The notes under the pieces are model-generated. The model saw only the letters and a program-made list of their open reading frames with translations. It had not been told where the DNA came from and ran no database searches. The position numbers were made by a program, and so were the translations under genes. This document shows positions 1 to 54,972 of a stretch of DNA of 64,000 nt, piece after piece. The stretch comes from Opitutales bacterium (GTDB lineage: Bacteria; Verrucomicrobiota; Verrucomicrobiia; Opitutales; PNEW01), in NCBI GenBank assembly GCA_965197745.1, contig CBDANS010000006.1, positions 896,001 through 960,000 on the forward strand. The letters run 5' to 3'. Numbering within the stretch: position 1 is the first letter of the stretch; the number at the start of each line of letters is the position of its first letter.

Positions 1-520
1 TCCCCGGGTCTTTGCTTATTTCATAATCAACAGAGGCTTGGGAATAGCCTTTACCCTGATAGTACTCAAATATTTTATGGCTGTCATCCTTGACTCGCCG
101 CTCGTCGAGAGTCCCATTTTCTCGAGAAACAATTTCTTCCTTAAGGCGAGCCCTTTTCATTTTATGATTTCCGGTAATTACGATTTCTTCGATTCGGTAT
201 TTTGCTTGAACGAGAAAAGTTAGCTTCAGTTCACCATTCTCCATCTTCTCGGATTTGACCTCGATAAAATCTAAAAATCCGGTGTTATATAAGGAACGTA
301 TGGAACGGTCTACTAAGCTTTGATTATATTCCATCCCTTCACGTATTTGTATACGGGCAAGGATGGCATCATCGCTAAGGTTTTGAATGTCCTTAAATTC
401 GATAACAATTTTTCCCACTTTAGAAAGTGGTTGGGTAACCTCTTGCGCTGTCAATAGTGGTAAGTTTACAGTACAAAACAGGGTAATAACCCACAAGAGT
501 GAGATGAAGTGCACGCGCAT
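1..520 (-). CDS. bamA: Outer membrane protein assembly factor BamA, N-terminal part (runs off window start)
   Basis: Manual translation from ATG at 520: MRVHFISLLWVITLFCTVNLPLLTAQEV... signal peptide, then POTRA-like DRSIRSLYNTGFLDFIEV and IEEIVITGN...YYQGKGY. Directly downstream of dnaB. Not in the ORF track because it has no stop in the window. Confidence 0.85.
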   Translation of the reverse strand, partial: MRVHFISLLWVITLFCTVNLPLLTAQEVTQPLSKVGKIVIEFKDIQNLSDDAILARIQIREGMEYNQSLVDRSIRSLYNTGFLDFIEVKSEKMENGELKLTFLVQAKYRIEEIVITGNHKMKRARLKEEIVSRENGTLDERRVKDDSHKIFEYYQGKGYSQASVDYEISKDPG

Positions 521-19242: not shown

Positions 19243-20265
19243 ATGAAATGGTCGGTCATTATCCCCATGGGGAGGCCGGAAAGAGCAGGAAACACCCTGC
19301 GCTCACTGGCGAACCAGAGCTACTTCCCTGAGTCCTGGGAGGTCCTTCTTGTCGGTGTTAAAGCGCGGGAAGTTACCGATGCGTTTCCAGATCTGCCAAT
19401 TGTCCCCGTTCCACTTGAGAGAAATGAACTGCCCCCAAAAACGCGGCTCATAGGCTCCGATCATGCCCAGGGTGACTGGTTTATTTTCGTTGATGACGAC
19501 ATGGAACTGGCACCCGACTATTTTCAATGTCTTAACTCCATAATAAATAATGATAGGGCTGATGGAGAAAAACCGCCCGCCGTTATTGGGGCTCGCTTAC
19601 CGGGAGTGAAAAATAACTTTTGTGACCGCCTTACGAATATTTCAAATTTCTGGTCCCAGCAAGGTGACCTACCCGGCTCGCGTCCCTGGCTATACAGTGC
19701 GGCAATTGCTATCCGTGCTAATGCTTATGAGAAAGTCGGTGGATTTAACCCTCACCTGCCCAATGGTGAGGATATCGATCTTACTCAAAAGCTGGTTCGG
19801 GCCGGCTACAATCTGCTTTATGAGCCCTCTCTTATCGCCTACCATAATCATGGTCGTACCACCCCTTTAAAGATGCTGGTCTACTTCTGGAAAAACGGTA
19901 ACACTGCCCTGTTTTTCAACCAGGAGTCCCTGGTGACGCGCTGTTTCAGCTTTAAAACTGTTATCATCCACGCCTGGAACGACCTGCAAAATAATCGGCG
20001 CTTAAACGTTTCTCAGGTATCCGGGTTTTACCGATGCTTCCCTTTTATCCTAATCAACTACTTCATTTTTCAATCCTCGATCGAGTGGCACTATCAGAAA
20101 TATCTCTGGGAAAACAGCCAGTTTCGTCACCTTCCTCTTCCTCAAGCCGGAGACCAAAGTTCCTTCCAAGCGTTCGTCCATTTTAAAAAGAACCACCCTA
20201 TAATAGGCGCACTTCTTTATGCCCGGGCGATGATCGAGGATTTCCGCCACCCGGTGCGGAGGTGA
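19243..20265 (+). CDS. Glycosyltransferase family 2
   Basis: SVIIP start, FIFVDDD, VGGFN...GEDIDL. Confidence 0.88.
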   Translation: MKWSVIIPMGRPERAGNTLRSLANQSYFPESWEVLLVGVKAREVTDAFPDLPIVPVPLERNELPPKTRLIGSDHAQGDWFIFVDDDMELAPDYFQCLNSIINNDRADGEKPPAVIGARLPGVKNNFCDRLTNISNFWSQQGDLPGSRPWLYSAAIAIRANAYEKVGGFNPHLPNGEDIDLTQKLVRAGYNLLYEPSLIAYHNHGRTTPLKMLVYFWKNGNTALFFNQESLVTRCFSFKTVIIHAWNDLQNNRRLNVSQVSGFYRCFPFILINYFIFQSSIEWHYQKYLWENSQFRHLPLPQAGDQSSFQAFVHFKKNHPIIGALLYARAMIEDFRHPVRR

Positions 20266-20300
20266 GGTTAGTCTTAGGCTGTAGACGCTATGAAGTGATA

Positions 20301-20379
20301 TGGAGCGGGCTGTCCCTTGTACCCTTCTTATAATTTGTGCTTTAAAGATTAGTACGCGCCAGGGACAGCACGTTCCACC
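20301..20379. repeat. REP-like paired repeat family B (GGTGGAACGCGCTGTCCC ... GGGACAGCACGTTCCACC)
   Basis: Inverted pair TGGAGCGGGCTGTCCCT / AGGGACAGCACGTTCCAC. Further copies at about 20716-20740, 43538-43566 and 50561-50717. Confidence 0.75.
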
Positions 20380-20417
20380 TAATCTCACTGCTTATTTCTT
20401 AGCACTTACCTTCTCAC

Positions 20418-20548
20418 TTGTCATTGCGAGGAGCAACGCGACGCGGCTACCGAGCAACAGCGACATCTTCCATTCCAGGCAAATGTCGGTTGCGTATTGA
20501 CATCCCCCTGGATTGCCACAGTCGGTAACACCTCCTTCGCAATGACAA
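20418..20548. repeat. Palindromic repeat family C, full copy with internal micro-insertion
   Basis: TTGTCATTGCGAGGAG ... CCTTCGCAATGACAA terminal inverted repeats. Confidence 0.8.
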
Positions 20549-20864
20549 AAGGAGAAATTTAGAAATCGTTTTGTCTGCAATTGGCCCTGAGCGCATGCCG
20601 AAGGGAGGGCTCATTGAAGGCCAAGCTGCAACAAGCATCCAGGATCAGGGATCCTACCCCTGCATGATTTTCTTAACCACAATCACCTTGACTCGCCGTA
20701 GTTCTCAGACATTAGCGTGCTAGGGACAGCCCGCTCCACCTCGCTCTCAGTGTTTGTCGTTTACTTCCATCCACTTATTCCAGATGTCACGATAGGTGCT
20801 CTCGAGGCGCCTTGTAAAACTTTCTTCGTCCATCAGGGGGCTTTTCTCCATGCGTGATCGAAGG

Positions 20865-22182
20865 TGGTCGTGACCACGAAAACTGGTACACTTGAAAAGT
20901 TAGTCTGGGTAACCTAGAAAGGACTCAGACAATGAAAGGCAAAAGATACACAACTGAAGAGAAAATACGGATGCTGCGGCAGGCGGACAAAGGGAAAACG
21001 ATCCTGGAAGCATGCCGCGAGAACAACATTAGCGAACAGACTTTCCACCGCTGGAAGCGTGAGTTTGGGATGATTGATGTCGACCAGGCCAAGCGGATGA
21101 AGGAACTCTTTGAAGGAGAACGCGCGGTTAAAACGGATGCTGGCGGACAAGATGCTGGGGATAGAGATCCTGCAGGAGACCCTCGAAAAAAAACTGTAAG
21201 CCCTGGGCACAAGCGGCAAGTGGCAGAGAGACTTGTGGCTCGGGGCCAGTGTTCGATGCGAGCGGGGTGCCGGTACTTTCGGCTGCACCGTTCCACCTAT
21301 GCGTATAAGGCGAAGCATCCGGATGCTTGGTTAATGAAACTGAAGGCGGCAGTAAGGCGGTTATCACGGCAATATGCCAGGTGGGGCTATCCGAAGATCA
21401 CGAAGCTGTTGAAAGACGAAGGCTGGGAGGTGGGTAAACGTCTCGTGCAAGGTCTACGACGCGAACTGGGCTTGGCGATCCCCCAACGCAAGCCAAGACG
21501 TCGGGGCAGGGGTGTTTCCACCGGGCTGCCGACCAAGGCCGAACATCCCGGCCATGTTTGGACCTGGGATTTTATCCACGATAAGACGGTCCGCGGTGGC
21601 AGTTTAAAAATGTTGACCGTGCTCGATGAGTACACCCGCGAGTGTCGAGTGATCCATGTTGATCGCCATATCAATGCGGAAACGGTGCGCGGTATCATGC
21701 AAAAACTGCTTGCCCGTCATGGGCCGCCACAATATATTCGCAGTGACAACGGTTCCGTTCCGAGGAGCGAAGCGACGACATGCGAAGCCATTCATTGAAA
21801 AGGAATTGAGAGCCTGGCTAACTGCGATGAAAATCAAAACCCTCTATATCGAACCAGGAAGCCCTTGGCAGAACGGATACATTGAATCGTTCCATGCCCG
21901 TTTTCGCGAGGAGTGTTTAAACCGTGAACAGTTATGGACTTTGACCGAAGCCCGCGTGGTCATCGAAGATTGGCGCTGGCTTTACAATCATGTCCGACCC
22001 CACCGCAGCCTCGGCAACATCACTCCACGGCACTTCACTGAAAACCTCAATACCGAAGGCTCGGGCTCCATTCGGGCTACGCCCTCATTGCGCCCAAGCC
22101 TTGACTTCCTCTACCAACTTAACTTCAACATTAACCTCTCCAGACTAACTCTCCCGGTGGACCAGTTTGTGTAACCCGACCA
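20865..22182 (+). mobile_element. IS3-family insertion sequence, inactivated
   Basis: TG...CA ends with imperfect IRs of about 44 bp (TGGTCGTGACCACGAAAACTGGTACAC.. and ..GTGGACCAGTTTGTGTAACCCGACCA). OrfA MKGKRYTTEE from 20932, A8 slippery site 21186-21193, integrase motifs WTWDF, SDNG, PWQNGYIESF. Disrupted by a +1 T and a 32-bp insertion. Confidence 0.92.
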
Positions 22183-23355
22183 CAGACAAAGACAAATATC
22201 TTTAAGGGACAGATTTTGCTGCGGGGAAATTATATAAAAATAATTCATGCTTTCGTACGCTCGATTGAATGGTTTCGAGGCCGATGGGGTTTTTAAAGCT
22301 TCGAAGCTTAATTTGATTTGCCCGTGAAGGGGTCTGAGTGCCTCGAGAAAGGGCGTTTGCATCTTAAGGCAGGGAATGGGTTGTTTCATAACGAAGGAGC
22401 ATCGTACATTGTAGAGCAAATTTAAGCGGGGTTCTTTTTAAATAATTTTGGCTGTCAAACCTTGCCCTTTGTAAATATATTTTCCAGCGAGCAAATCGAT
22501 ATATGGACTAAGGGTCGGTCAGCTGATCGACCCCCCCGCCCCCTAGTAACATGATTTACTCTCTCTTCGATTTATTTCAAAATTAGCGGACACCCGCGAT
22601 GTTAGACGGCGAACTTTTTCTTGATGGGAATACCCTTAAATTATGGGTCGCAATGGGTGTGGCAGTAGTATGTCAACACCGGCTTAATCAGGGTTTTAAA
22701 CTGGGGCTTACTCCTTAATTATCGATTATCTAAGACCGTTAGGAAATTATAAGTTAAAAATAATATATTGATGATCAATAACTTACAAACTTACTAGACA
22801 TAATAGTTGTTGTGCGGTTCACCTTCTAAGACCTCCTCTCGGTGCCGTCCTCTTTTGGTCCACGCACACTGGCGCTGATAACGGTCTGCTCAGGCAACCT
22901 GAGCAAGGAGCAGTCACTCTTTTTTAAGTGTGTCCACAGGTTGGCCTTCATTGCGGACAACCTACAATATCACTTAATCAATGGGCAGATCGATTAGAGA
23001 GGATCGTGTCGATCCTCCCTCTCCTTTTTTAGTGGTCTACTTTTCACCAGAGTTAGTGCCAGAAAAAAAATGATAATATTGACAGCAGCAATTTGCGCGC
23101 AAAAAAAATGCCCCACCTCTCAGATTCAGGAAGCATCTGAAAACAGCGACGGAACAGTTGCCCCTCGAAATAAAATCTGTCATGAAAAACTGTAAAATGC
23201 AGTTGCGAAGCAACGGTTTGTCCAGGAGCTATCCTTGGGTTCGATAAATCAGTCTCGTCATACACGACAGGATTCTATGAAATGGTGCCGAAAGTAAACT
23301 TCTTACCCAAACTCGTGTCAGGCAAGTAAGGTGGAGTTATGGGAGCTATGAACCG

Positions 23356-24269
23356 ATGAATATACTTCAAGAGATGTTGAATTCCGTTTTAGCAGATTCC
23401 GACTTTGACAAATACTCTGACGATCTGCATGCAGCGTCAGGCGATATTATTCCTAGGATTGCCAACAAAACTGCAGAATCTATATTAACCAGACATCTCC
23501 TTCCCCTATTCATCTCAACAGATTTAGAAGCAGGAACCGATTTCAACCGCGAGTTCCGCAACGCCGTCGTGCGGTCAGGTGATACTGTATTTGAGGCACT
23601 TACCAGGATGCACGCCCGACCGTGCCAGGTATCATCTGCCATTCTCGTCTTACGGCGTACCGGTTATGCATACGACACGCTCGCACGGTGGCGAACCCTG
23701 CATGAAATTTCAGCGATGAGTTCTCTTATAAGTAAGCATGGTAAGGAACTAGCAGAAAAATATCTGCTGCACGATACCATACAGCGATATAAGATAGCAT
23801 GTCAGCACCAGAAATATAAAGAGCAATTAATGAGGAACCAATTACGCAGGAGGAATTTGACAGTCTCAAGTCAGAACACGACCAGCTCGTAGCTCGATTC
23901 GGCGAGTCGATAAGAAGGAATACGGCTGGGCAACTTCAATACTTGGAAAAGATCTTCCCACGATAAGCGACATTGAAAAACACGCTAACTTGGAACATAT
24001 GAGGCCTTATTACAGAATGGCGAGTGACAACGTGCACGCAAACTCTCACGGCGATTACTTTAGGATAGGGTTGAGTCAGATTCTTCACGATGATGATCTA
24101 CTTCTAGCTGGCGCAAGCAGTATGGGGTTGGCTACTCCTACTCATTCTACTGGGATTGCATTAAACCAAATAACCTCGAATTTGCTTTTAAATGTGTTGA
24201 ACTTCGACTGCTTAGTCATCTCAAATACACTCCTTAAATTAGTACATGAGATTTTGAAAGTATTCCTTG
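23356..24269 (+). pseudogene. DUF5677-like protein, frameshifted and 3'-truncated by IS3
   Basis: Fragments 23356-23892 (RMHARPCQ...GYA...ARWRTLHE) and 23990 onward (RPYYRMASDNVHANS) read as consecutive parts of one protein. It ends at the IS terminus at 24270. Confidence 0.6.
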
Positions 24270-25620
24270 TGATTGGACCCCGTTTTTCGTACCAATTATT
24301 ATGTGAGAGAGTTACCGGGTATTAATGGTTTTAGGATTGATGTATATGAGAGATCTTGGCGCAGTGAGGGCGTAGCCCGAACGCGGCCAAGAGCGGAAAG
24401 GAATGTGACAAACTCTTGTGGGCTTTTAAAGCCTAATCGACTGTGGGGATGTTCATTGTTATAGGTCTGACGCCATTGTTCTATTAGCACTTGCGCTTCA
24501 GCCACGCTGAGCAACACTTCACGGTTCAAACACTCATCGCGTAAGCGGTTGTGAAACGACTCGATGAAACCGTTTTGCCAGGGACTGCCCGGATCGATAT
24601 ATATCGCCTTGATCTTTTTGTCGGACAACCACTGCTGCACCTGATGAGCAATGAATGGCTTCGCATGTCGTCGCTTCGCTCCTCGGAACACTGCCGTTGT
24701 CACTGCGGATATAGCTAGGAACTCCCTCTTCATCGATGGTTTCGCTGAGTACCGAGAGAACATCGGTTGAGGTGAGCTGTCGAGCTACCCGGATGCGTAA
24801 ACATTTACGCGTATATGTCTTCGCTTCGCTTGAGTGTCGTCGCTTTCAGCTCCTCGGTACATCGATCAAGGTCATCATCTTTAGCATACCGCCATTGTCT
24901 GTACGATCATGGACAAAGTCCCAGGACCAGACGTGATTGCGACCGGTTGCTTTAGTAGGGAGCCCAGTAGAGATCCCCTGACGGTGTCTACGCTTTTTTG
25001 GTGGCTTTACCTGTAAGCCCGAAGAACGTCGCACTGCCTGTACAAATTTCCTGCTTGCCGCCCAACCTTCTTTCACCAGCAAGGCACGAATGCGCCGGTA
25101 ACCGTAACGGGGATGTTCCCAGGACAAGGTCAAAATCCGCTCGGCCAATTGCTGAGCCTTCTTACTGGCCTGCTTGGGTCGGTAGCTGTACGTTGACCAA
25201 CTGAGGCTGAGATAAGCACAAGCCCTCTAAAACGAGCACAGCCCCTTCTCAGCCGCATCTTTTACTGCTCGCTTCTTCTGCTTTGGGCTCACCATTTTTT
25301 TGAGAGCGTTTCCTCCAACACCCGAAGCTTGAGCATTTGATCAGCGAGCATCTTCTTCAGCTCCGTATTCTCCTTTTCCAGCTCTTTAAATCGCTTCGCA
25401 TCAGCCAGCTCCAAGTTGCCATACTTTTTGCCCCAGCGATAGAAGGTCTGTTCACTTAGGTTGTTGCCGTGGCAGACTTCCTGCACGGTTTTGCCCGTAT
25501 CGGGCTGCCGCAGTATTGCTATGATCTGTTCTGTTGTATATCTTTTTCTTTTCATTGAGGTTATCTGTTTATCCCGATAACCTCTCTCTGTTAATGATAC
25601 CATTTTTGGGGGTCACTCCA
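24270..25620 (-). mobile_element. IS3-family insertion sequence, inactivated
   Basis: TG...CA ends (TGATTGGACCCCG.. and ..GGGGGTCACTCCA). OrfA MKRKRYTTEQ 25555-25289 ends at an A7 slippery site, OrfB has WSWDF and PWQNGFIESF. OrfB is broken by 43-bp and 32-bp insertions. Confidence 0.92.
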
Positions 25621-25622
25621 AT

Positions 25623-28016
25623 GCAAAGTCTCCTTCTGAAAATATCTACGATTGGATTGATCAGTGCGCTCATTATTGCCTCAAATTGAATCAGAAAAAT
25701 AAAACAGTACACTATTTTTTATTATCAAATGGTCTCAAAACAGGACTGTTTGTATGGGATCAAGCAAATGCAATACTTGAGCTTGGTTTTGAGGATTTCT
25801 ATTTAGGAGGTGAACTCTATGAGAAACTTAGGAATATTATCTGTGTTGATACGTTTAAAAAAGGACTGGGGGCACCTGATCCAGGTAGAAATATTCTATT
25901 ACGTAAGATTCATAAAGAAGAAGCACAAAAAGTCTTTATAAACTGTCACAAGTATATTTGGAATACCGAGAAAAGGGGCCCACTATCGGCATTTACAGAG
26001 TTCGTAAAGTTGATATTCCTTAAATTGTGGAACGATAGAATTTTGCACGAGAATTTTCGTCCCGATTATTCAGGTAAGTTACTTGTCCCGCAATCTGCTA
26101 ATACTTTCTCAATTTTGTGGATAGAATCCAGAGAGAAAGACCACGGCTCCCCGGTAAACGATATCTCTTTCAAGAACCTGATAACACATATTGAAGACGA
26201 TATAGACAAACGGAATAAAAAGAGAATTTTTGATCAGAATGAACAGATTGAGTTGAAGCCTACAACAATTAAAGGAATTGTAAAAAAACTTGAAAAAATA
26301 GATCTTTACGGAATCGATGAAGATTTAAATGGGAGGTTGTTTGAGACCTTTTTGAATGCGACAATGCGAGGTCAGGCATTGGGGCAATATTTTACACCAC
26401 GAAGCATTGTTTTACTTGCTACCGAATTGGCTGAATTGAGGACAGATTCAAATTATATTGAAAAGGTTTTAGATGGTAGCTGTGGGACAGGTGGATTCTT
26501 GATAGAAGCCATGTCAATTATGAGAAACAATATTCGTGAGAATGATTCTTACTCGATTCAAGAAAAAAAGAAATTAATAGAGGTAATTTGCAATGAAAAG
26601 ATATTTGGAATAGATGCGGCATCCGAGCCAAATCTGGCAAAGATATCAAGGATAAATATGTATCTGCATGGGGATGGAGGCAGCCATATCTATTTTGCGG
26701 ACGGTTTGATAAAAAATATTCAGGTCGATAAAACTGATCCGCGGGAACTACAACGGGAAATTGAGGAAATGAAGCATGAGTTTGGTCCCAGTTCTTTTGA
26801 TGTTGTTTTAACCAATCCCCCTTTCTCAATGTGGTACGAGGAAAAGAATGAGTCTCAAAAACATATACTTGAGCAATACAACCTAACCCAATATAAAACA
26901 AAACCCCCGAGAACACGACTAAGAGGAAGTGCACTTTTTATCGAACGATATTGCGATTTACTACGACCAGGGGGCAAACTGATCACTGTTTTGGATGAAA
27001 CTGTATTATCTTCAGGACAATATTCTTACCTGAGAGATTTCATCCGAGAAAAGTTTATCATTCGAGCTGTGATCTCATTGCATGGTGATGCATTTCAGAT
27101 GGCGAAAGCCAGGGTCAAAACTGCTTTAGTATATTTACAAAAGAAAAAATATCCGGATGATGACCAACCAGCTGCATTTATGTACTCTTCTATTAGATTA
27201 GGTGTAGATGATATGCCAATCACAACTAATCCAGAAAAGGTGAAAAGTGCTCGTGAATTGGCAAGGGAAGAAATCAAAACAATTCTGGAGCTCTATAAAA
27301 GATACAGAAAGGGCGAAAAGGGTGAGTGGTTCGTCCAAACAGCAAACCTGAACGATCGCTTGGACGTTAAGTCATGTGTGGATATGAGAGGCCGGATGAT
27401 TGAACGCTGGGAAAAGGGAAGTTACGAGGTTAGTTCGCTCGGCGAGCTGTTGACACCCCAAAATGATACTGTAATGCCAAAAGATAATCCAAACAAGGAA
27501 TTCAGAATACTCGAAATCACGTACTCGGGCAGGTGTTATATAAAAGAAAAGCGAGCTGGACGAAATATTAACTATAAAAAAATGACGGTAGTACATACTG
27601 GGGACCTGATATTTTCGAGTTATAATACTTTTCAAGGTGCAATGGGTTATGCAACAGAGGAAATTGATGGCGCGGTAGCATCAAATAGTTACATCGTTAC
27701 ACGTGCGAATAATATAGAAGATTCCCTTTATTTATGGTCTATTCTAAGAACAACAGAAATTCGTGCAGAATTTCTTACCTCTGCAATCGGGATGGGTAGG
27801 CAAACAGTAAAATGGGATAAGATTTGCACAGTCCAAGTTCCATTATTGCATCCAAGTCAAAGAGAAGCTATCGGACAGAGAGTAATGGAGCATTGGGAAG
27901 CAGAAAAAAGGGCGAAGGATGGAATAAGCGCGATCTCAAGAGAACTGCACAACAAATTTGATGTTGAGTCTCTAAGTTCACAAAAACGGTTTTTAGGGGC
28001 AAAACCACCCAAATAA
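25623..28016 (+). CDS. Type IIG-like restriction-modification fusion (N6-adenine MTase + TRD), 5'-truncated by IS3
   Basis: GQYFTPR, motif I DGSCGTGGFL, motif IV NPPF and a C-terminal HsdS-like TRD. The frame is open back to the IS end and reads AKSPSENIYDWIDQCAHY...YFLLSNG, an endonuclease-type tail. Confidence 0.8.
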   Translation, partial: AKSPSENIYDWIDQCAHYCLKLNQKNKTVHYFLLSNGLKTGLFVWDQANAILELGFEDFYLGGELYEKLRNIICVDTFKKGLGAPDPGRNILLRKIHKEEAQKVFINCHKYIWNTEKRGPLSAFTEFVKLIFLKLWNDRILHENFRPDYSGKLLVPQSANTFSILWIESREKDHGSPVNDISFKNLITHIEDDIDKRNKKRIFDQNEQIELKPTTIKGIVKKLEKIDLYGIDEDLNGRLFETFLNATMRGQALGQYFTPRSIVLLATELAELRTDSNYIEKVLDGSCGTGGFLIEAMSIMRNNIRENDSYSIQEKKKLIEVICNEKIFGIDAASEPNLAKISRINMYLHGDGGSHIYFADGLIKNIQVDKTDPRELQREIEEMKHEFGPSSFDVVLTNPPFSMWYEEKNESQKHILEQYNLTQYKTKPPRTRLRGSALFIERYCDLLRPGGKLITVLDETVLSSGQYSYLRDFIREKFIIRAVISLHGDAFQMAKARVKTALVYLQKKKYPDDDQPAAFMYSSIRLGVDDMPITTNPEKVKSARELAREEIKTILELYKRYRKGEKGEWFVQTANLNDRLDVKSCVDMRGRMIERWEKGSYEVSSLGELLTPQNDTVMPKDNPNKEFRILEITYSGRCYIKEKRAGRNINYKKMTVVHTGDLIFSSYNTFQGAMGYATEEIDGAVASNSYIVTRANNIEDSLYLWSILRTTEIRAEFLTSAIGMGRQTVKWDKICTVQVPLLHPSQREAIGQRVMEHWEAEKRAKDGISAISRELHNKFDVESLSSQKRFLGAKPPK

Positions 28017-41617: not shown

Positions 41618-41754
41618 AGTAGAATAATTCAATCGACAATTCGTACCGAGGGCTCAATCCGACATCCTCCAAATAATCCCCTCCCTTTTACCCATTAACC
41701 CTTTATCCATTTAAATTCCTAGACAAGACTCACCACAACCCCTAATAAAAGTAG

Positions 41755-54749: not shown

Positions 54750-54909
54750 CCTGGAATGCTTCGTCTCCCGCGGTTGCGGGATCCTCGCAATGACAAATTA
54801 ATAATCAGCAGTGTGTTCTAAATAACCTCTTACAGATACACTCTTATTGTCATTGCGAGGTTGCTTGTCAGCCGCGGCTACCGAGCGCAGCGACATCTTC
54901 CATTCCAGG
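54750..54909. repeat. Two family C half-repeats, the second with a micro-insertion (54879-54901)
   Basis: CCTGGAATGCTTCGTCTCCCGCGGTTGCGGGATCCTCGCAATGACAA and TTGTCATTGCGAGG...GCGGC[TACCGAGCGCAGCGACATCTTCC]ATTCCAGG. Confidence 0.75.
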
Positions 54910-54972
54910 CGAACAACCATTGTGATTAAGAATACCAGTCTTCGCTCAGAACGATTTAAACTTTAAAATAGT

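Follow-up and report, generated by a model that had tools for sequence, protein, structure and literature searches.

Mobile DNA below about 50 nt is, to our knowledge, barely documented, and we know of no mechanism for any of the cases. The small dispersed repeats (SDRs) of Nostoc and its relatives, which Elhai et al. are said to have described in 2008, reportedly measure 21-27 nt, have hairpin potential, occur within MITEs and heptamer arrays and are polymorphic, some copies of an otherwise identical site having the repeat and others lacking it; we know of no enzyme for them. RUP in pneumococcus, Correia elements in Neisseria and RPEs are small repeats of 100-150 nt that land in IS elements or genes; RUP and Correia end in inverted repeats and duplicate their target, whereas RPEs sit in frame and are tolerated. 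Miniatures of the IS200/IS605 type insert 3' of a fixed tetra- or pentanucleotide and show subterminal hairpins and a strand bias.

The excerpted text of Di Nocera et al. 2013 (PMC3733652) describes GTAG- and CGTC-tagged REPs as stem-loops measuring 20-40 bp whose short unpaired head and tail motifs are conserved, reports Opitutus terrae, of the same order as the organism studied here, as REP-rich, and mentions RPEs of Rickettsia inserted within ORFs. REPINs, as presented in an excerpt of Bertels and Rainey 2011 (PMC3116915), are miniature non-autonomous hairpin DNA without target duplication, believed to depend for movement on the HUH enzyme RAYT acting in trans. The GCGNAGC mini-hairpins are, in the available part of PMC13037366, extraordinarily stable and nuclease-resistant, bind SSB poorly and occur at the primase start sites of single-stranded phage origins.

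The window, i.e. the whole stretch of 64,000 nt analysed here, comes from a marine-type Opitutales bacterium. Its inserts belong to a family of modules with a TWCCGA head, one or two small hairpins and a GACA..CA tail. We consider it probable that this is an ultra-small (about 24-70 nt), non-coding, non-autonomous and sequence-targeted mobile family, which has mostly spread passively on IS3 elements. No paper describing these inserts was found in the literature searched.

In kind, the phenomenon is near to REPs and cyanobacterial SDRs. Compared by description, the modules resemble SDRs in behaviour, with hairpin-bearing forms below 30 nt, insertion polymorphism and nesting in other repeats; phylum and sequences differ from those in Nostoc, and a [G/C]|AR or T-loop target, forms with two hairpins (33-70 nt) and the filling of transposase genes on a massive scale are, as far as we know, undescribed for SDRs. 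Tandem units that follow tRNA genes and copy the tRNA 3' end from T-loop to CCA recall the RtT units of E. coli tyrT (RF00391), for which we know of no portable module that also appears in transposase genes. The only Rfam matches at the tRNA-linked loci were tRNA and a weak hit to RtT (23.7 bits vs a gathering score of 45). Unlike DDE-type MITEs, the modules have no target duplication, and a 5-bp TTCCG..CGGAA repeat occurs only in the long T-loop forms. Set against IS200/IS605-type miniatures, they show no duplication and possess hairpins, with a 5' flank of only G/C and a flank ..WTT on the other strand; one target base is often lost at their sites.

As in the REPs of the PMC3733652 excerpt, TGTC/CGTC abuts the hairpin on the reverse strand of the modules, tails are CCA-like and some copies lie within genes. 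Unlike the REPs described there, module stems are GC-rich, with 2-7 bp and 3-nt loops (vs 8-9 bp starting AT and a 4-5 nt loop), and the head is TWCCGA, not GTAG or CGTC; in contrast to CGTC-tagged REPs, the CCA tail (forward) and TGTC head (reverse) are on opposite strands. Neither the target-site rule nor the saturation of IS3 elements is described for REPs in that excerpt. With REPINs, as excerpted from PMC3116915, the modules share hairpin DNA without target duplication; unlike the REPIN/RAYT system, no module-flanked RAYT gene was found and the modules mostly stand singly instead of in inverted pairs. The part of the mini-hairpin literature available to us treats d(GCGNAGC)/d(GCGNNAGC), a motif contained in inserts A and B, as a structural motif and not as a mobile element (PMC13037366).

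The following features were placed in the window:

20448..20472 (+): one-hairpin general module within a MITE with terminal repeat GTCATTGCGAGG..
20855..22182 (+): IS-1, an IS3-family element broken by insert A; ends from 32 full-length genomic copies
21194..21195 (-): empty site E in IS-1, AG between the A8 slip run and GTAAGCC
21628..21631 (+): empty site B in IS-1, GAGT of LD-E-YTR; filled in IS-2 relatives
21758..21790 (+): insert A in IS-1, TTCC..GCC plus terminal A; replaces AG/AA of the Glu codon in SDNGS-E-FI
21911..21914 (+): empty site C in IS-1, GAGT of FRE-E-CLN; filled by a 36/37-nt module in 14 other copies
24270..25620 (-): IS-2, an IS3-family element broken by inserts A and B; ends from 23 copies
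24532..24535 (-): empty site C in IS-2; filled in a run contig
24656..24688 (-): insert A in IS-2, identical to the IS-1 copy
24816..24859 (-): insert B in IS-2, the 43-mer plus terminal A; +42 nt in frame, with a TGA stop (frame read from the sequence)
41644..41670 (+): one-hairpin general module within a CAATCGN heptamer array
54879..54903 (+): one-hairpin general module within a second copy of the 20448-type MITE

A preliminary description of this DNA had placed an exact 32-mer at 21758-21789 (+) and 24657-24688 (-), and these proved to be its only two occurrences in the window (chance expectation: mean 0 matches in 100 dinucleotide-preserving shuffles). Both copies split the Glu codon of SDNGS-E-FI between ...G and ATTCATT, as had been stated, and the five bases just ahead of them differ (TTCCG vs CAGTG). 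The related 43-mer was likewise found where described, at 24817-24859 (-) between GATCGATG and ATATACG, with an empty counterpart in the first IS (GATGAGTAC, 21625-21633), and the existence of shorter relatives at 20448 and 54879 was borne out; empty copies of the 20448 MITE exist elsewhere in the genome. Absence of target duplication held good, and the remark that one A appears replaced can be refined: empty alleles show AG/AA exchanged for a module ending in A. The inserts measure 33 nt at site A and 44 nt at site B, so that the net gains are 31 and 42 nt, respectively. Three MITE copies and a tRNA-linked repeat from another genome show pure insertion before A instead.

The host elements encode an OrfA with HTH_Tnp_1 and an OrfB with an rve (DDE) core, have ends TGGTCG...CGACCA with the IS3-type terminal TG..CA, and bear an A8 run (21186-21193) as the A-rich orfA/orfB slip site of IS3 type. 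IS-1 has the architecture HTH_Tnp_1, HTH_21, rve, rve_3; in the ORF pieces of IS-2, rve_3 and HTH_21 were detected. The IS-1 ORF at 20932-21798 terminates just past insert A, and filled transposase genes are inactivated by frameshift or in-frame stop. The empty sister copy of IS-1, L014, retains a 402-aa ORF with rve (3e-22), rve_3 (5.7e-26), HTH_Tnp_1 (1.8e-13) and HTH_21 (4.6e-09); an extra T in its subfamily places the orfA and orfB parts in a single frame.

Five fixed sites of the IS3 transposase genes occur filled and empty (A 71/11, B 32/43, C 14/29, D 12/70, E 7/36). Loose ends of run contigs at 21193 and 21196 carry the module at site E; for site C of IS-2, 37 letters of module sequence separate 24532 from 24535 in a contig of run X20, and a loose end from X1 lies at 24535. 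On its sense strand, an empty IS-1b copy has only six GA[AG]T sites, three of which are A, B and C, and IS-2 has six such sites left plus two filled. The coincidence that two IS elements are hit in the same codon is accounted for by this small choice of six to eight sites per IS.

The junction rule [G/C]|AR applies to sites A-E, the MITEs and the tRNA-linked repeats, as read from filled/empty pairs. Targeting, as proposed previously, was supported; the target itself, given then as the position before AT, is better put as [G/C]|A[A/G], usually followed by T. Its best natural match is the tRNA T-loop, TCG|AA. None of the more than 10 filled/empty pairs has a target duplication, and the 3' junction varies by 0/1 nt. 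One pair is formed by L014 (empty) and L015 (filled), which match at 893/893 nt upstream of the insert and at 393/395 nt on its downstream side. Their sole nearby difference is at +3 (TTT/TTC), where it matches other filled subfamilies; the subfamily markers at -14, -17 and +11..13 are unchanged. The idea of a family of tiny non-coding, sequence-targeted inserts without target duplication is supported, and filled and empty alleles of otherwise identical IS elements exist. Identity between IS-1 and IS-2 running well beyond the insert, which the preliminary description had named as grounds for refutation, was looked for and does not extend past insert A: upstream, 14 conserved bases give way to four mismatches in the adjoining five, and downstream eight identical bases are followed by little identity, within alignable patches that are 70-76% identical.

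The statement that the element has repeatedly knocked out transposases was right as to repeated breakage, but overlooked that most copies are passive and not repeated fresh hits. Most copies stem from the spread of already-broken IS elements and, we infer, from very short conversion patches. The site-state combinations eeFF, FFee and FFFF are all present among 78 IS copies, and one chimeric IS is joined precisely at insert A. On the IS tree the site states are homoplasious (minimum numbers of changes: A 5, B 3, C 5, D 5, E 3); the 78-copy alignment took in some non-IS flank, which inflates branch lengths, and the tree was used for these minimum counts only. None of the 37 rows of the IS-2 clade scored as empty at every site. 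Conservation of the insert sequence far exceeds that of its flanks.

Genome-wide, 269 regex matches to the module were obtained vs 29 when the genome was reversed as a control. The modules are related to each other colinearly and over their full length, and sit almost only in repeated families. A terminal stem of at least 3 bp is present in 33/101 distinct middle segments, with 16 different stem sequences, whereas 500 shuffles gave a mean of 1.8 and a maximum of 6. Insert A contains GCGAAGC twice, as two mini-hairpin motifs, and insert B has GCTGAAAGC and GCGAAGC. Since nearest-neighbour folding of the inserts, a tRNA-linked unit and flanks was no better than that of shuffles (z -1.05 to +1.6; inserts +1.1 to +1.5), the two-hairpin reading rests on the published stability of GCGNAGC. 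This motif is not enriched genome-wide (1970 vs 2333 in a reversed-order control), and Rfam gave 0 matches at E<=1 in window positions 20000-26000. No bias of module orientation relative to GC skew was seen among the 68 modules passing filters (39:29, p=0.27), which counts against the mobile-family reading, because a bias might be expected from an enzyme that works on the template of the lagging strand.

The module is confined to one order. It was present in 5/41 relatives and, in a sample of the phylum, in 11/27 genomes of the same order, 0/24 of the same class and 0/100 others; a reversed-pattern control gave 0. A wider pattern scan of contigs listed at least 118 matches, and among the matches listed five have the full module form, all from Opitutales records; the remaining ones are chance matches in high-GC genomes, so that the scan says little about distribution.

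Outside the host's own family, the module lies in T-loop copies of tRNA, and for 10/20 loci fetched from such families a tRNA is no more than about 500 nt away. These T-loop modules are found, in sense and antisense, in copies of tRNA 3' ends that follow immediately on tRNA genes. One tRNA array contains two tRNA-like genes whose T-loop itself is filled by the module, and Infernal aligned both at full length across the 54-55 nt insert (33.5 and 28.9 bits; gathering score 29). The array, in genome G176, is an accessory one of at least 11 tRNA-like genes, and 46 tRNA hits over the cut-off were counted genome-wide; the interrupted genes therefore need not be functional. In the host genome, Infernal revealed no tRNA with a long insert (44 normal tRNAs and one weak 55-nt hit).

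Mobilisation by an HUH/RAYT-type enzyme, as suggested earlier, found no support. The host genome, G000, has a single PF01797 match (C6:163380-163706); it is frameshifted, with no module within about 8 kb (155-172 kb), and the intact orthologue in G001 has none within about 1.3 kb. PF01797 is present in 5/5 module-bearing genomes and also in 17/36 module-free relatives. Multicopy PF01797 genes of 322 aa in G040 have their own 24-bp terminal repeats, with modules near or inside them and not at their ends. Reverse transcriptase (PF00078) was not found in four of the five module-bearing genomes (G000, G001, G002 and G035), and no fresh insertion was seen among the run contigs, which are assembled contigs only. 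Our best guess for fresh insertion, which we hold to be possible but doubtful, is a trans-acting enzyme recognising the hairpin in single-stranded DNA, HUH-like or of another type.

Under the mobile-family reading, a module with its TWCCGA head, one or two small hairpins, often d(GC-GNA-GC), and GACA..CA tail would enter after G (or C) and replace the next A-R without target duplication. The best natural match to this target would be, on either strand, the DNA that codes for tRNA T-loops (TCG|AA), and copies would survive only where harmless: in tRNA 3'-end repeats, spare tRNA-like genes, MITEs, heptamer arrays and IS elements. In the host family, five GAR-T/CAR-type sites in the catalytic core of the IS3 transposase would have been struck, with frameshift or in-frame stop as the result. 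The approximately 130 IS-borne copies would be mostly passive, broken IS elements being moved in trans by a few intact ones, and inserts may be exchanged between IS copies in patches of about 36-56 nt. Of all this, the data show the anatomy, the target rule, the filled and empty alleles, the inactivation and the restriction to one order; we infer movement in trans, conversion patches and the class of enzyme.

The same data can be read without any dedicated mobility, as a few ancient chance insertions spread by gene conversion, template switching and IS proliferation. The +3 base that travels with the insert while markers 11-17 nt off do not, the chimeric IS, the homoplasious site states and the near-confinement to repeated families all suit such a history; template copying would account at least as well as transposition for a 3' junction that varies by one base and for a flanking base that moves along with the insert, and with nearly all contexts being repeats, homology-driven spread could explain much. 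We nevertheless hold it to be unlikely, as more than 10 unrelated contexts have a common [G/C]|AR junction with an exact 5' boundary, and, with 4/5 insert-adjoining bases differing between IS-1 and IS-2, a conversion tract would have to stop exactly at the module edge. An integrase that uses a tRNA T-loop attachment site, and sometimes acts on look-alikes in IS elements, might have left the modules as footprints or arm remnants. T-loop positions in tRNA 3'-end copies are the classical place for attachment-site remnants, and site A of IS-1 (GGTTCCGAGTT) is similar to GGTTCGAATCC; yet the modules are colinear and full-length instead of variable, 24-33 nt is too small for recombinase-binding arms, and the two junctions share no repeated overlap region, which makes this origin quite improbable.

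That the inserts are removed from RNA or skipped by the ribosome, leaving filled transposases functional, would suit the many near-identical filled IS copies, the lack of an all-empty copy in the IS-2 clade and the conservation of inserts far above flanks. Net lengths of +31, +42 and +35 nt with in-frame TGA/TAG stops, together with the lack of Rfam matches and the ability of intact empty copies to supply transposase in trans, render it very improbable. Translational bypass of the type in T4 gene 60 or mitochondrial byps was rejected on the codon before the insert, which varies (TCC, AGT, TCG) and has no matching landing codon. Splicing was rejected as well: in contigs of four runs, data in which rare excision, circles and transcript ends are beyond reach and which are informative for covered parts only, the sole joined metatranscriptome form has AG in place of 33 nt plus 10-17 other differences, and so represents an ordinary empty allele from a variant IS. 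Mini-hairpins are reported, in the available part of PMC13037366, to disturb sequencing, but the presence of these inserts at the same sites in the sister assemblies G001 and G002 (1-2 contigs) and contigs from independent runs X1 and X2 that cover the inserts with 0-2 differences reduce the chance of an assembly or sequencing artefact to almost nil.

A further-reaching version of the mobile-family reading, which we regard as speculative and rather unlikely, is that the modules constitute an undescribed class of mobile DNA, among the smallest, aimed at the palindromic T-loop core TCG|AA by an enzyme acting on mini-hairpin single strands, and that in one family they escaped onto IS3 elements as a genome-wide brake. 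The system is clean and testable, given an exact junction rule and filled/empty alleles in otherwise identical IS copies, and the likely natural target, tRNA T-loop DNA, is present in every genome. The enzyme, once found, could add a new type of sequence-targeted insertion of single-stranded DNA, and its identification could help to explain the long-unexplained repeats behind tRNA genes. For the bacterium itself the effect is visible: most IS3 transposase genes of its genome are inactivated at codons of the catalytic core.

Within the window (C6:896001-960000 of a 4.45 Mb genome in 7 contigs), the 32-mer TTCCGAGGAGCGAAGCGACGACATGCGAAGCC occurs exactly twice, at 21758-21789 (+) and 24657-24688 (-), as the preliminary description had stated, and had no match in 100 shuffles. 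Both copies, each part of the 33-nt insert A, lie within IS3-family transposase genes, with G upstream and ATTCATT downstream, in the codons for SDNGS-E-FI; the 32-mer is preceded by the pentamer TTCCG in one element and by CAGTG in the second. The related 43-mer (in the 44-nt insert B) was likewise recovered at 24817-24859 (-), flanked by GATCGATG and ATATACG, and its counterpart in the first IS is indeed empty, with GATGAGTAC unbroken at 21625-21633. The features concerned are:

20855-22182 (+): IS-1, an IS3-family element, ends defined from 32 genomic copies
24270-25620 (-): IS-2, an IS3-family element, ends defined from 23 genomic copies
20420-20550 and 54850-54960: MITE with terminal repeat GTCATTGCGAGG...CCTTCGCAATGAC, genome copies of which exist with and without a small module

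The preliminary description had named identity of the two IS far past the insert as evidence against its own reading. IS-1 and IS-2 are alignable in patches only, at 70-76% identity; upstream of insert A, 14 conserved bases are followed by mismatches at four of the five positions adjoining the insert, and downstream eight identical bases give way to little identity. Identity therefore stops near the insert.

An unbroken sister copy of IS-1 (L014) contains an ORF of 402 aa in which HTH_Tnp_1, HTH_21, rve and rve_3 domains are recognised. IS3 transposases align with retroviral integrases, and TDNGSNF surrounds D116 of HIV-1 integrase; by this alignment we take the D of SDNG to be the second catalytic Asp, which places insert A four residues past it. 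The insert adds a net 31 nt and results in a stop at 21796-21798 (ORF 20932-21798). Insert B, with a net gain of 42 nt, keeps the frame, but contains a TGA. In both IS-1 (~21106-21116) and L014, an extra T in CTCTTTGAAGG joins the N-terminal HTH and orfB in one frame, so that the empty copy is a single 402-aa ORF for which the usual -1 frameshift would be unneeded; contigs one base short at 21109 or 21111 are present in all four sequencing runs.

The junction rule was derived by comparing filled sites with empty copies within the same repeat families. A G (or C) precedes the module, which ends in A and takes the place of an AG or AA dinucleotide; in other words, it goes before A, and the base following that A is lost. 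Three MITE copies and a tRNA-linked repeat of another genome have kept every target base, and no filled/empty comparison revealed a target duplication. Modules occupy five fixed sites, A to E, in the IS3 elements. On its sense strand, an empty copy of 1,331 nt from the subfamily IS-1b offers just six GA[AG]T sites, three of which are sites A, B and C, and the IS-2 of the window has six remaining, site C among them, in addition to two that are filled. The same-codon coincidence in two IS is thus explained by a Glu codon followed by a T-starting codon, within a conserved motif, being one of very few targets. Related inserts occupy the other sites:

Site C: within FHNRLRD-E-CL
Site D: within PGSPW-Q-NG
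Site E: opposite strand, flanked by the A8 slip run and GTAAGCC

Across the genome, regex searches counted filled/empty sites as 71/11 (A), 32/43 (B), 14/29 (C), 12/70 (D) and 7/36 (E). The site-A insert occurs ~70 times, counting one-base variants, which follow IS subfamilies, and the site-B insert ~30 times. A one-hairpin class, TACCGA-hairpin-GACATCTTCCA, is dispersed in the MITE, in arrays of the CAATCGN heptamer and in other small repeats. The family as a whole, searched with a permissive regex, gave 269 matches versus 29 on the reversed genome. A further repeated context is the intergenic motif formed by TGTGCTTTTT and GTGGCTAT (e.g., C7:491769 and C6:1353923), with a module between the two halves in ~12 copies and many others empty.

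Perfect terminal stems of at least 3 bp were present in 33 of 101 distinct middle segments (the two-hairpin IS/tRNA type and segments below 7 nt being left out) and comprised 16 different stem sequences; over 500 trials, shuffled segments averaged 1.8 such stems and never exceeded 6. What is conserved is thus the hairpin structure, not its sequence. GCGAAGC is found twice in insert A and once in insert B, there alongside GCTGAAAGC; these are d(GCGNAGC)/d(GCGNNAGC) mini-hairpins, described in PMC13037366 as extraordinarily stable, nuclease-resistant and poorly bound by SSB. Folds of the inserts predicted with standard energy models, which miss such mini-hairpins, were no better than those of shuffles. 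Near the 3' ends of both transposase ORFs, otherwise diverged, lies a 24-nt stretch, TTCGGGCTACGCCCTCAYTGCGCC (22071-22094 (+) and 24358-24381 (-), 23/24 identical), translated as RATPSLR. Its reverse strand contains GAGGGCGTAGCCCGA, the hairpin of the one-hairpin class. The stretch is possibly a sixth insert, older than the others and in frame.

In the Opitutales genome, tRNA-Asn and tRNA-Gln are followed by tandem repeats of tRNA 3' ends whose T-loop position is likewise filled by the two-hairpin type, in the order GGGTTCG, module, ATCCTGCCCGGGCAGCCA, where a 9-bp stem spanning the insert co-varies with the neighbouring tRNA. The same arrangement stands behind tRNA-Asn in a sister genome and behind tRNA-Ser in another family. 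The module pattern is present in 5 of 41 relatives; when the phylum was sampled evenly, it was found in 11 of 27 genomes of the same order, 0 of 24 of the same class and none of 100 others, and a control with the pattern reversed scored zero throughout. The full form accounts for 5 among the at least 118 pattern matches listed, in records of Opitutales, Puniceicoccaceae, Coraliomargaritaceae and Pelagicoccus. Outside the family of the Opitutales genome, copy number is low (1-8), a tRNA lies within ~500 nt at 10 of 20 fetched loci, and modules are longer (~50-70 nt, with TTCCG..CGGAA ends) and replace the AA of the antisense T-loop (ACTCG-AA-CCCAC). By sequence, insert A, at 33 nt, resembles this long element with an internal part missing.

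At one locus of another genome (L170, G176:C23:27979-29216), at least 11 tRNA-like genes are densely arrayed, and in two of them a 54-55-nt module replaces the T-loop:

L170, 483-603 and 698-826 (-): T-loop-interrupted tRNA-like genes, anticodons CAG and TGG

The full tRNA model of Infernal aligned across the module in both, at 33.5 and 28.9 bits (gathering score 29). They are probably dispensable, since this genome has 46 tRNA hits above the cut-off, many outside the array. No module-interrupted tRNA genes were found in the Opitutales genome, in which ARAGORN and Infernal identified 44 tRNA genes and no tRNA-His; the latter may simply be unassembled, as the assembly is rated 92% complete.

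Contigs from runs X1 and X2 span the inserts with 0-2 differences, and that the inserts are artefacts is rejected with next to no doubt. No joined, insert-less form was seen in these contigs; all runs consist of contigs, among which rare events are invisible. Metatranscriptome contigs (X20 and X21) that skip 21758-21790 carry AG there together with 10-17 other differences; they represent an empty allele of a variant IS and no spliced product. Removal of the inserts from RNA, or their bypass by ribosomes, is likewise rejected as very improbable. Further contigs, from other copies, carry modules at site C, between positions 24532 and 24535, and at site E, 21193/21196.

The clearest polymorphism is between two IS-1b copies, L014 (empty) and L015 (filled), which are identical at 893/893 nt upstream and 393/395 nt downstream of the insert. 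One of the two differences lies at the third base past the insert, where the empty copy reads TTT and the filled copy TTC. The TTC state is also found in other filled subfamilies, and the markers of the subfamily (-14, -17 and +11 to +13) have not changed, which fits transfer of the insert from another IS in a patch of ~36-56 nt. A chimeric IS outside the window (C7:1673775), IS-2-like upstream and IS-1-like downstream with the joint exactly at insert A, points the same way, as do the mixed site states and the changes on the tree of IS copies. Among 78 copies, the commonest states of sites A-E (F, filled; e, empty) were Feeee (27), FFee? (23), eeeee (4) and FFFF? (4), and eeFF? also occurs; with eeFF, FFee and FFFF coexisting, single gains on the tree are insufficient, and repeated insertion or recombination is needed. 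Minimum numbers of changes were 5 (A), 3 (B), 5 (C), 5 (D) and 3 (E) on a tree that is noisy, its rows having taken in some flanking DNA. Copies without a module at any site number just four, all of them IS-1b, and the IS-2 clade has none; the many nearly identical filled copies are accordingly best regarded as dead elements mobilised in trans, in the manner of MITEs.

Module anatomy, target rule, transposase inactivation and polymorphism are established. As the agent of fresh insertion we favour a trans-acting enzyme that recognises the hairpin in single-stranded DNA, a candidate ahead of its rivals but doubtful; passive multiplication, through IS movement and short conversion patches, has better support. 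No enzyme emerged from the gene families searched. Of the five genomes that bear modules, four lack RVT_1. PF01797 (HUH Y1) is encoded in all five, and also in 17 of 36 module-free genomes; the sole copy in the Opitutales genome is frameshifted and has no modules within ~8 kb, and its intact orthologue in a sister genome (L150, ~327 aa) has no flanking modules. Module orientation relative to GC skew showed no bias (39:29, p=0.27). Conversion alone appears rather unlikely as the full explanation, and the inserts as integrase footprints more unlikely still. Another genome (G040, L145-L148) contains dozens of PF01797 gene copies of ~322 aa, which have terminal repeats of their own, inverted and 24 bp long (GGGGACGGACCTAGTTGTTTAGCG); some of the copies have small modules nearby or within them.

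The modules behave like the small dispersed repeats (SDR) of cyanobacteria and like REPs, above all the CGTC-tagged ones, which "apparently lack a dedicated transposase" (PMC3733652). They lack what defines GTAG and CGTC REPs, REPIN/RAYT systems and DDE MITEs. Repeats located behind tRNA genes are similar to the tRNA-linked repeats of E. coli, but their match to RtT of Rfam is weak. No published description of these inserts was found in the literature searched, the coverage of which was limited. The modules are real and well defined: they are ultra-small, probably mobile repeats of the REP/SDR-like kind, whose target rule is unusually clear and whose effect on IS3 elements is striking.
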